From positions 46,252,001-46,316,000 of the forward strand of contig CM126214.1 in NCBI GenBank assembly GCA_052327205.1: a DNA stretch of 64,000 nt, given 5' to 3'. This document shows positions 52,980 through 56,464 of the stretch, piece by piece (the stretch's first letter is position 1; every line of letters starts with the position of its first letter). This stretch comes from Somniosus microcephalus (taxonomy: Eukaryota). Position numbers and translations under genes: made by a program. Below the pieces are notes generated by a model. That model searched no databases. It was not told where the DNA came from and saw only the letters and a program-made list of their open reading frames with translations.

Positions 52980-55900
52980 TGTTAAGTCTGTGAATTATTT
53001 AGTTAATTAAAACACAGACTAATGAGGAACAATAAAAACAGGTCTTTACTGGTTGGAGGTAGGGACTATACTGAATACAAGATTACTGCACAGTGCTTAT
53101 ATACCGGTGTGTTCACCCCCGGTATTACGTCTACAGCAGCCTGAGAAAGTAGTACATCTCTTAAGGTGGAACAGGCTTAAGCTCTCTTAAGGTGGAACAG
53201 GTTACATACACAACACTCCTCCCTTCTTAGCTTTATAGTCATCCCCCTCATTTAACATAACGTAATAACATATATACATATATAACTTCATGTTTAACGT
53301 AACATATCACAGATTCAGTCTCTGCGGAAAACAGTTCACAGATTCAATCTCTGTGGTGTAGTCGGTTCACGTTACTCATTCAATAGTCCTTTCATGGATT
53401 TAACAGCTTGAACTTCCGAACTGATTTGGCTCCATTCGGAGGGACCACGTGTGTGATCTGGTAGAGGTGACAATGGTTCAGATGGGTCATCTTCTGTTTT
53501 TACTTTTCCTTTTCTGCTTCTTGGAGACTCTCTGGGCTCCATTGTCAGCTGCCACAGCTGCCAGCTGCATGCGCAGTTCCTCCTTCTCTTCCTCCTGTTT
53601 CCGTCGTCGAGCCAGCTTCTCCTGATGTTCCGTAGACTTTTGGTGCTCCTCCATGATTTCTGCACTTTGGGAGTCGAAGTTACAAGCTGGGCAGGACAGG
53701 ACATCGTAATATTCAGTGTCGTCCACCAGGTCATGGTAATATTCGGTGTCGTCCTGAGCTAGACCAGTGAGAGGGTCGTCTATTTCCTCCATACCCAGCT
53801 GGACGTTAGCCAGCTCTTGTTCCAAATCCAGACATCTTTCCTGAAGAGACTTCTTCATGTGTACCTCTGCATCCAGCTTTTTCTGGGCTTTCAGCAAGTC
53901 GTTTACTAGTGACCTCATTTGTGATTTTAATACTTCAACTTCCTTTGGAGATTGATTGATCGGACTATGCAATCCCTCTACCGGAGCAGCTGTTTCAGCG
54001 GTCTGTTGTTCTACATTGACGTGAGTCAGCGTACTTTTGGCATCCAATGGCTGCTCTGTTGCAGTCGTTTCAGTCTGTGTCGTCACATCAGCCATCTCAA
54101 TGACTTTTGAGAGCTCCGAACCCTTTTCCTTTGAAGATCGCAGCTCGTGTTCAAGTTTTTCCCATTTCAGAGTCTTGTCCCTCAGCATATGAAGGAGTTG
54201 GCTGACCGTTAACTCTTCTGACACCAGATTATGGCACGCACCTTCAGAACCTGAATCAGCTTTGATTCGTTCGGCCTCCTCGCGCAGATGGTTGGTGTGC
54301 TCCTGCTCCATTTTCTCCATCAGTTGCTTCTGTTGACTTTCCAGATTCTCCCACTCTGTAACAAAGAACTTTTTTATTTCATTCATCTCTTGCTCAAAAC
54401 GGCGAATCATTTGTTCTAATTGCTGTTGTAGTTTGAAATGGAGTTGAGTTCGAGCCCAGTGTCCCTCAAAAATGTGCATATCAGTAGACTTGACAGACTC
54501 AGAATTCTCTGTTAAACTATGTTGTTGTTGCTCAGTGGAATTCTGTGCTGAAACTTTGTCTTTTGCACATGGGTTGGTCTTACCATCATCAGTTCTAGAG
54601 TCTGGGCTGATTATCTGCACCGAGTTCTCACTCTTTATGGCTTTTAGCGAATGCCAGTCCATATTTATGTTTCTAAACCACTCCCGGCCTAGTAGTGGTG
54701 GACCTCCCTCCGGTAGCACATATAAGTCCATTATTTGACTTCCTTCGCCCTTGTTGGCCACTGCAACCTTTATTGTCCCGATGGGGTACACTCTCTGCCC
54801 CGTGTAGGTTGTCAATATAATCTCCGTATCCTGTAGGGGAATATGTTGGAATAACCGACTGTAATCTTTCTTATTCATGACCGACAATGCCGATCCAGTG
54901 TCCAATTCCATTTTTACTTGGACTCCTTCTATCTGAAGAGTAACCCAAATTGTCTGGAGGTCTGCACCCTTACCAACGTTGAGTACCCTTAAGCTAGCCA
55001 GTTCAATACTGCTTGCGTCTGAATCGGACTCCTGTTCGGCCACCTTGTGTACCTTTGCGTATTTCCCTTGCGGTGACTTCTTGTTGCTGGTCTTCTTCGC
55101 TGACCTGCATACTCTAGCTATATGTCCAAGCCTACCACAAGTTCTACATTCTTGGTTTTTAAACCAACACTGGTTCTGATCATGCGTTGTCTTTCCACAA
55201 CGATAACATTTGCCAGAACTCACACCCAATTTGTGTGCACTGAGCTCCGGTGACCGTAGCTGCATTACTGCCGTGCCTCTCGCTGCGGCTTCGTGTGCTG
55301 CTGCCATAGTGACCGCCTTCTCAAGCGTCAGCTCATTCTCCTCGAGCAGTCGCTTTTGTGTATCCTGTTTAAATAAACCACACACAAATTTGTCTCGAAG
55401 TGCCTCTGTCAGTCCCGTTCCAAACTGGCAATATTTCGCTAATTTACGCAATTCCAGCAAATATTCAGCATTGCTTTCATGCTGTAGCTGCCCTCTGTCG
55501 TAAAATTTAAATCGTTCCGCTAGCATCAGCGGCGTGGGGTTTAGATGATCTTTCAGGACAGTAACAATCTCATCGAACGTCTTATCCGCCGGTTCATCTG
55601 GTGATAACAGGTGTTTCAATTGCCCGTATGTCTTCGCACCCATTAAATTTAATAATGTTAGAGCTTTATCTTGGTCACGAATTTTATTGGCCTTACAATA
55701 ATTTTTTACTCTTTCAACATATATGGCCCAATCTTCGAGGTCACTATCAAAGGTGCTAATATTCCCATGTTTAGGCATTGTAGATTTGCAATTTCTCAGA
55801 TTTTATTTTCTTTACTTGTTATCAAAGATGGCGGCTTCCCGCTCTTGCCGTCGTCCTCCGCCCACAAAATGGCGGTTTTCCCGTGCTTGGCGGTCTTCAC

Positions 55901-56464
55901 CCGTCCCCCGACGCCGTCTCCCTTCAGCCCCCGAGTGCGGCCCTTATCTTCGCCGTGATCGCCCGAGTGCGGCCCTTATCAGCGGATGCGATCGATGGCC
56001 CGGCTGCGCCTCGCACTTGAAAGCGGCCCGGCCCTTATCTGCCGATCGCTATCGCCCTGTACCTCTCTCTTCCCCAGTCCTGTCTTCTACTCCGGTTCAC
56101 AAGCTGATGGAGGCTTCAGGGTCCTAATGCCTGTCGCTTCCAGTGGGGTGGTGAGTGGTGAGGTTTGAAACCTCTCTTCAACCGCCGTGGAATAACTGCC
56201 GCAGGGTAAGATCCTGACTCGTCGCCAGTGTTAAGTCTGTGAATTATTTAGTTAATTAAAACACAGACTAATGAGGAACAATAAAAACAGGTCTTTACTG
56301 GTTGGAGGTAGGGACTATACTGAATACAAGATTACTGCACAGTGCTTATATACCGGTGTGTTCACCCCCGGTATTACGTCTACAGCAGCCTGAGAAAGTA
56401 GTACATCTCTTAAGGTGGAACAGGCTTAAGCTCTCTTAAGGTGGAACAGGTTACATACACAACA
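52980..56464 (-). mobile_element. young non-autonomous Gypsy-type LTR element carrying captured host coding fragments
   Basis: LTRs 52980-53215 and 56229-56464 (236 bp, TG..CA, identical by eye); TSD CTGGC; PBS TGGCGACGAG at 56218-56227; PPT at 53216-53230; no RT/RNase H/IN. Confidence 0.95.
53487..55778 (-). CDS. 763-aa chimeric polyprotein: Gag (two CCHC) + aspartic protease + STK10/SLK-like coiled coil + optineurin-like coiled coil + DNAJC21-like C2H2 zinc finger
   Basis: Uninterrupted [113 protein letters not shown]. Host assignments are from recall. Confidence 0.85.

Follow-up and report, generated by a model that had tools for sequence, protein, structure and literature searches.

Acutely transforming retroviruses of the Gag-onc type, such as E26 with its gag-myb-ets fusion, are defective, depend on a helper and join Gag to more than one host gene. 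They are exogenous and selected by somatic tumour growth, whereas the element described here is without env and without oncogene logic. It is a Ty3/Gypsy long terminal repeat (LTR) element at positions 52980-56464 of a 64,000-nt window of the genome of the shark Somniosus microcephalus (GCA_052327205.1, contig CM126214.1; the window is the whole stretch analysed and all coordinates refer to it). Its single open reading frame (ORF) fuses Gag and protease to pieces of three host genes, STK10, OPTN and DNAJC21, and the first of these was very probably copied from a back-spliced circular RNA.

Several described systems come close. In the available sections of work on LTR-mediated retroposition in animals (Tan et al. 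2016, PMC5131818), partial spliced mRNAs replace internal ORFs by template switches at microsimilarities, and multi-gene chimeras, often in frame, go through further rounds of retroposition. Those retrocopies are young or few in number, with many older ones broken, and the string 'circ' does not occur in the available text; the shark element, in contrast, has thousands of copies, five surviving stages, a first cargo that is probably back-spliced, and a cargo protein under selection. The mouse circRFWD2 pseudogenes (Dong et al. 2016, PMC4897178, available sections) likewise show a non-colinear exon junction, in 33 copies with LTR-enriched flanks, but were considered pseudogenes whose mechanism was called mysterious, whereas the putative shark circle lies between protease and integrase tail as one turn plus 11 nt, in frame and in at least 822 copies. 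Maize Bs1, from the available parts of PMC5131818 and PMC13317346, carries three host-gene pieces in a chimeric LTR-element ORF with common switch points, but numbers one to five copies, has one of its pieces out of frame and was read as a possible host gene, and those parts describe no circle or current burst. Endogenous retroviruses of crocodilians that captured KIT-ligand and nectin3 (PMC4299795, available sections) resemble the shark element in holding host mRNA in a vertebrate LTR element under purifying selection, but there each captured gene stands alone and nearly complete, next to env or in its place, in six to nine old and decayed copies, and the sections describe no Gag-protease fusion mosaic, unlike that of the shark. 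No paper on this family, or on an in-frame circle as a Pol replacement, was found in open PMC and bioRxiv text (subscription journals and Repbase unsearched). Gene capture by LTR elements, Bs1 and the circRFWD2 copies are therefore already known, and what is apparently new is a selected, amplified, in-frame replacement of Pol that derives from a circle.

Structure of the element and its host donors

The element lies on the minus strand between two 236-bp LTRs (TG...CA; 5' LTR 56229-56464, 3' LTR 52980-53215) that are 100% identical, and is bounded by the 5-bp target-site duplication (TSD) CTGGC at 52975-52979 and 56465-56469. The direct LTRs and short TSD are accompanied by a primer-binding site (PBS; 56209-56228), whose core TGGCGACGAG is common to the older cargo families and to a same-clade autonomous family, and by a polypurine tract (PPT; 53216-53235), as in Ty3/Gypsy elements. 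The insertion interrupts a long interspersed nuclear element (LINE), which we take from a motif to be CR1-like, and it is clean since the rejoined flanks give one uninterrupted LINE reading frame across the site; a Pfam search of an 86-aa ORF near the insertion returned no match. The 763-aa ORF (53487-55778) encodes Gag (55029-55778) with two CCHC knuckles at ~55104-55208, an aspartic protease (54636-54944, DTG at 54894-54902) that has lost the native linker to reverse transcriptase (RT), the STK10, OPTN and DNAJC21 parts and a K/R-rich tail at its end, and a domain search of it gave no RT, RNase H or integrase match. The initial annotation, made from the sequence alone, had described a young LTR element with identical LTRs, this TSD, PBS and PPT, one such ORF and this partial set of domains, and in all of this it was correct. 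Gag-protease is 47-51% identical to its best single-ORF Gag-Pol relatives, which carry RT, RNase H and integrase and, where named, are labelled K02A2.6-like; no relative with the fusion was present among 95 matches of the cargo or the 120 Gag-protease matches listed, a search restricted to 419-1,336 aa.

The cargo begins at residue 382, immediately past the protease, and not near residue 435 as first proposed. It opens with two pieces of STK10 exon 9 separated by a 69-nt in-frame gap (54457-54634) and continues with parts of exons 11 and 12, spliced together, which encode the first PKK coiled coil (54256-54467). A short OPTN piece (OPTN ~131-144; 54222-54264), with 9 nt in common with STK10 at the joint, leads into OPTN 228-384, intronless from four host exons (53782-54228), from which the FVEI segment of older copies, presumably a motif resembling an LC3-interacting region (LIR), has been deleted. 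The DNAJC21 piece (53496-53781) comprises an acidic stretch with a 30-nt duplication, a C2H2 finger with four of four ligands, a helix and the basic tail. A fourth host piece, overlooked initially, extends past the stop and consists of the end of STK10 exon 8 spliced to the start of exon 9 (53375-53495), the far end of the putative captured circle, followed by an integrase C-terminal tail remnant (53325-53358) that is untranslated in the window subfamily. The claim that every piece is in frame therefore applies to the three translated pieces and fails for the exon 8/9 piece (~53375-53495), which is out of frame around and past the stop in the window copy and in frame in older families.

For the coiled coil the initial annotation had named STK10 or SLK. 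The ORF matches PKK (PF12474) at 42.8 bits (cut-off 25), the best named kinase matches of the cargo protein are shark STK10 (E 5e-23), and the STK10 pieces are 88-95% identical in DNA to exons of STK10 in the same genome; both the named matches and the exon identity point to STK10, and SLK as donor is ruled out. The proposed optineurin coiled coil proved right, residues 518-666 being identical to shark optineurin at 110 of 157 positions (70%, E 5e-47). The proposed DNAJC21 zinc-finger region gives two matches from the window protein, both to DNAJC21 and weak (E 0.03 and 0.14), and is firmly identified through a less diverged relative, L040, which matches proteins with DnaJ, ZHD and zf-jaz domains at E 2e-14 to 3e-12. 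Window DNA maps to STK10 exons 9, 11 and 12 (our own count, presumed analogous to the human gene) and to five OPTN exons with the introns gone, the STK10 and OPTN pieces each spanning several host exons at canonical splice sites, and in early copies identity to the host exons is 98-100%. The finger exon of host DNAJC21 was absent from the 140 kb fetched downstream of the one upstream exon located, the cargo had 0 matches among PDB sequences at E<=1, and the C-terminal ubiquitin-binding region of OPTN is in no copy examined.

Some observations on the donors stand beside these results. Host OPTN as assembled (C17 ~85.884-85.885 Mb, L049) appears to contain two surplus single bases near an exon junction, which break its frame, through assembly error or a real lesion, and element copies read cleanly at that site. 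STK10 intron 10 is a GC-AG intron (L061) whose splice point is confirmed by an element copy. One older copy (L036:2067-5165) holds ~120 extra in-frame residues between protease and STK10, possibly a fourth capture.

The first capture

The back-spliced order of the first capture was missed by the initial annotation, as were the intermediate stages that survive. In stage 1, Gag-protease is followed by STK10 exon 9 from an internal point, exons 10, 11 and 12, and then exon 8 and exon 9 up to the starting point, an arrangement found in 10 of 10 copies fetched from the long-STK10 matches, with nine of the ten continuing in frame into the integrase tail. The exon 12-to-8 join consists of the exact host exon 12 donor and exon 8 acceptor; of the 34 older copies examined 33 contain it, and its sequence has 822 exact matches in the genome (control 0). 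When four elements were compared with the 60 kb host gene (13 exons), only exons 8-12 were represented; these total 1,245 nt, are stop-free across two turns, and the capture stops 11 nt beyond its own start, although part of this overlap may be homology with the parent element. Linear templates have AG alone in common at the exon 12-to-8 point, whereas the other switch points show 7-9 nt. OPTN and DNAJC21 have replaced the exon 12-to-8 junction in the window copy, where the STK10 pieces on either side still stand in permuted order.

Because the join is exact at the splice sites and linear templates share only AG there, back-splicing is the best reading, and the first cargo would then be, with high probability, one full turn of a back-spliced STK10 circular RNA. 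Trans-splicing or a tandem duplication since lost are the alternatives for the same join. Element transcripts themselves carry the same exon 12-to-8 junction, and no inverted repeat pair was found between the introns flanking exons 8-12. The 11-nt overlap might equal the distance from polymerase to RNase H site in RT, a correspondence confounded by possible microhomology with the parent and given no weight here. A full-length, frameshifted same-clade Gypsy element with LTRs 93% alike lies in sense orientation in STK10 intron 7, just 5' of the circularised exons (C8 ~167.208-167.214 Mb, L062-L063). As the direct donor this copy was rejected, its Gag-protease being 58-67% identical and frameshifted.

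Later stages and a probable change of chassis

Four further stages follow in a structural series. Stage 2, represented by copies picked by their 3' tail, has lost STK10 479-615 in frame, and its STK10 pieces share one frame in 22 of 24 copies (two trivially, having one match each). In stage 3 OPTN 131-430 replaces the back-splice junction, to be shortened later, and stage 4 (L039, L040) gains DNAJC21 while losing the linker between protease and RT. In the window family, which is stage 5, more sequence has been deleted in frame, the final STK10 piece and the integrase tail have dropped out of frame, and the chassis is a different one, as indicated by dS against older copies of 0.5-1.2 in Gag/protease, far above the 0.10-0.20 of the cargo. 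The order of stages is taken from the structural series and distance from the host, not from a rooted tree; differences from the host over a common 212-nt piece climb along the series (3, 3-8, 6-12, 8-13 and 21-22), which supports it.

Microhomology at the switch points is 9 nt for STK10/OPTN and 7 nt for OPTN/STK10. Together with the host exon maps, these 7-9 nt junctions uphold the proposal of serial capture of spliced RNA through template switching, and the anatomy and serial capture can be regarded as practically certain. The first PKK coil is kept in every subfamily examined, with at most ~10 residues trimmed off its end, and cargo ORFs have acquired basic ends by three routes, namely the native integrase tail, an arginine-run version of it and the DNAJC21 basic stretch. 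In searches for parents, an alternative post-protease continuation pattern for the young chassis gave two matches, both family-derived; 12 of ~21 C1 protease matches without a junction match were fetched and 12 of 12 were young-family variants; and a tail search for the older parent yielded cargo elements at 30 of 30 loci examined.

Copy number, youth and open frames

A 29-nt junction specific to the window subfamily has 1,602 exact matches in the genome (control 0) and a protease motif 1,679, both lower bounds; picking copies by exact match also favours young ones. The initial proposal of a propagating family is thereby borne out and its question of copy number answered: the window subfamily is without RT or integrase, yet has multiplied to at least 1,602 copies. 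LTR pairs differ at 0-2 sites in 18 of 19 young copies, TSDs are exact in 16 of 19, and, of copies sampled by position, 20 of 30 in one sample and 15 of 20 in another have an open frame, private stops and frameshifts piling up in copies after insertion. Shark OPTN used as query against the genome brought up 23,782 first-look candidates, a figure that is not a copy number; the top 20 matches fetched were all LTR elements with longer cargo, and 15 of these 20 had a single uninterrupted ORF, in a sample biased to intact copies. Cargo content and length vary widely among subfamilies (ORFs of 750-1,030 aa), and in all those examined the frame stops no more than ~300 nt from the 3' LTR. A domesticated retrogene would be expected at one or a few old orthologous loci with decayed LTRs, which does not describe this family.

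Variation in the family extends to a young variant (L113, L129, L131, L158) whose C2H2 finger is present in a second, diverged version and whose basic tail differs. Cargo elements are often found within or next to same-clade pol-bearing elements (L030, L079, L086, L088, L089, L171, L173, L176, L178), which abundance or targeting may explain. Apparent tandem units sharing one LTR are suggested by two cargo matches 3,216 nt apart (L007/L008), and a joint of 56464 to 53216 in an RNA run also fits such units.

Selection on the fusion protein

Selection was assessed by counting tests on one lineage, not by codon models. Changes fixed in the young family at positions where L040 equals the host number 56 in STK10 and OPTN (266 codons), and 26 of them are synonymous against 15.4 expected under a null matched for substitution type and CpG, a ratio of non-synonymous to synonymous rates (dN/dS) of ~0.44 (p=0.001). 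Private, single-copy mutations in the same parts give 0.90; single-copy changes in Gag-protease give 0.71, so that this control is not purely neutral. Simple pairwise comparisons point the same way, though less strongly; that of the window with the host gives 0.38 (p=1e-4) or 0.54 (p=0.013), depending on transition weight. Shared indels in the ORF, across 62 young copies, are multiples of three in six of seven cases, the exception being the finger-duplication variant, whose frame remains open with its own end; the corresponding figures are 2 of 9 in untranslated regions and LTRs and 5 of 15 among single-copy ORF indels.

The DNAJC21 finger shows a different pattern, with 11 of 19 non-ligand residues changed, one synonymous difference and all four ligands kept, and its 17 amino-acid-changing nucleotide differences fall outside the ligands with 0 within them (p ~0.01). 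The duplicated second finger, seen in four copies and not fully independent, has diverged again with ligands intact, and dN/dS in the DNAJC21 part is 1.5-2.7, non-significant alone. The fusion protein is under amino-acid-level selection on the young lineage, in agreement with the initial annotation, whose alternative of selection merely for an open frame is disfavoured because amino-acid changes are depleted and the zinc ligands kept.

Expression and a candidate helper

Expression, for which the initial annotation had looked to RNA data, receives a mixed answer. Two RNA runs were chosen by species label. In run X6, 9,754 of 16.65 million records align to the window with first mates mainly on the plus strand, an excess of ~3- to 60-fold over the ORF that is element-sense under the usual stranded protocol, strandedness being unrecorded; in run X7 the sense bias is absent. 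The element is covered lengthwise by contigs from independent runs. Runs X1-X5 (three organism labels, two studies) contain 65-75% of the element's sampled words, and the family may span species.

The same-clade autonomous family has 3,349 candidates and shares LTR ends, PBS core and PPT with the element. An uninterrupted 1,319-aa frame was present in two of eight copies fetched, with Gag-protease 57-62% identical to that of the element. It is accordingly a candidate helper and not the parent, and mobilisation in trans, judged from these sequence features, is plausible.

A possible role for the cargo

The coding sequence of a transposon should come under selection only where its product benefits the copy that encodes it, as can be deduced from the available part of PMC9073684, and the cargo is therefore read as cis-acting. 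The Gag-protease-cargo protein may serve its own RNA as a stand-in for Pol, after remodelling of the circle-derived STK10 with OPTN and DNAJC21, a reading to which we give about even chances. The RT of a helper would, within the particle, have switched onto the STK10 circle, copied one turn and switched back; later switches at the 7-9 nt homologies would have brought in OPTN and DNAJC21, and recombination would have transferred the cargo to a different Gag-protease and LTR chassis. The coils would oligomerise Gag-protease molecules as RT does in Gag-Pol, RT and integrase would be supplied in trans by the same-clade autonomous family, and the basic tail would take the place of the integrase tail in RNA binding or nuclear entry, Gypsy integrase tails presumably carrying nuclear signals. 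The retained first PKK coil aligns to SLK 846-911, inside the SLK N-terminal coil, which in the available text of PMC5419656 mediates SLK dimerisation. A leucine zipper placed behind HIV protease increased Gag-protease multimerisation and cleavage in the sections available from PMC3291649. The initial suggestion that the element's protease cuts the cargo free is doubtful, since this subfamily has lost the native linker between protease and RT. Folding residues 434-763 from a single sequence was uninformative (long helices, mean pLDDT, the predicted local distance difference test, 70.9; pTM, the predicted template modelling score, 0.26; finger unmodelled).

A number of points weigh against the cis-acting stand-in. 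The same HIV zipper led to premature cleavage and fewer particles (PMC3291649, available sections). Pairwise dN/dS in the cargo is 0.34-0.68, a much looser constraint than in Gag/protease (0.09-0.29); several comparisons are non-significant at transition weight 3, and the whole cargo of the window against L040 gives 0.55, or 0.76 (p=0.2) at that weight. Variants present in at least four young copies are mostly non-synonymous (18 against 4, with 16 in the DNAJC21 part), which a passive scaffold does not predict, and repeated large deletions in the cargo are tolerated, among them, in seven young copies, loss of the final 10 residues of the retained coil. Run X7 (7,978 of 14.4 million records) shows both directions about equally, X6 and X7 are labelled organism B, perhaps another species, and their reads pool many copies. 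Finally, genome searches found no autonomous element closer than 57-67% in Gag-protease.

An accessory protein directed at the host, with coils that poison STK10 or OPTN complexes or a finger that binds or evades a silencing or RNA-sensing factor, is an unlikely alternative that would account for the rapid change of the finger around intact ligands, its duplication and renewed divergence, the elevated ratio of the DNAJC21 part, and the LIR-like FVEI (again our label) kept in older copies. However, the FVEI segment is deleted in the youngest family examined, the ubiquitin-binding region of OPTN is absent from the copies examined, three unrelated donors fit a generic property better than a single target, and a diffusible benefit common to all copies would be weakly selected (deduced from the available part of PMC9073684). 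The decoy role suggested initially is on this last ground doubtful.

It is likewise unlikely that the cargo is filler that maintains RNA length and ribosome transit to near the 3' LTR, for packaging of the translated RNA or avoidance of nonsense-mediated decay, with residues that need only be soluble and harmless. Strong conservation of the frame, the highly variable length and content of the cargo, the constant proximity of the frame end to the 3' LTR and the non-significant pairwise tests are what such filler predicts, and part of the selection signal could come from the removal of misfolded or toxic variants. The synonymous excess on the young lineage under the matched null and the kept zinc ligands speak against it, as do the repeated gain of new modules and the regaining of a basic tail after the integrase tail left the frame.

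Camouflage, in which pieces of host mRNA make small-RNA silencing of the element costly to the host, has a maize precedent (10.1101/777037, available part) and agrees with the near-identity of early copies to host exons, but is very improbable, as the youngest family is the furthest from the host with an excess of synonymous change (dS 0.16-0.22), the opposite of keeping identity, and conservation of the ligands is left unexplained. That the copies are host-useful retrogenes, as the available part of a shark preprint takes single-exon OPTN copies flanked by LINEs or LTRs to be (10.1101/2024.09.09.611499), or an assembly artefact is hardly credible, given that the copies number at least 1,602, are scattered and have TSDs of their own and LTRs that are nearly identical, that private stops and frameshifts build up after insertion, and that contigs from independent runs lie along the element.

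Other elements in the window

Elsewhere in the window, 25823-29771 holds a frameshifted same-clade Gag-Pol Gypsy element whose gag-protease DNA is 65% alike to that of the element, and 7734-8789 and 12711-13964 hold two frames resembling DDE_Tnp_4 transposases.

Implications

The family provides a dated, stepwise natural record of the reverse transcription and amplification of what is very probably a circular RNA, a mechanism left open by Dong et al., and a testable signature of it, namely a single turn with a short overlap, set between protease and integrase tail. Here exon shuffling makes a selected protein inside a parasite and not for the host, with the intermediates persisting in one genome, and this offers a route to asking what structural role Pol has in the Gypsy particle. 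It also carries a warning, since the intronless pieces of OPTN, STK10 and DNAJC21 found by the thousand in shark genomes can turn out to belong to elements as cargo, and gene-duplication counts and adaptive stories built on such copies need checking. A broader proposal can be made tentatively, that a selfish Gypsy lineage built a replication protein from host parts, circle first, that the cargo went on to evolve like a genuine gene of the element, with conserved coils for assembly and a finger engaged in an arms race with a host factor, and that coiled-coil cargo replacing Pol may be recurrent in sharks and rays. If so, stop-free in-frame circles would be ready-made replacements for Pol, copied whole in one turn of RT.

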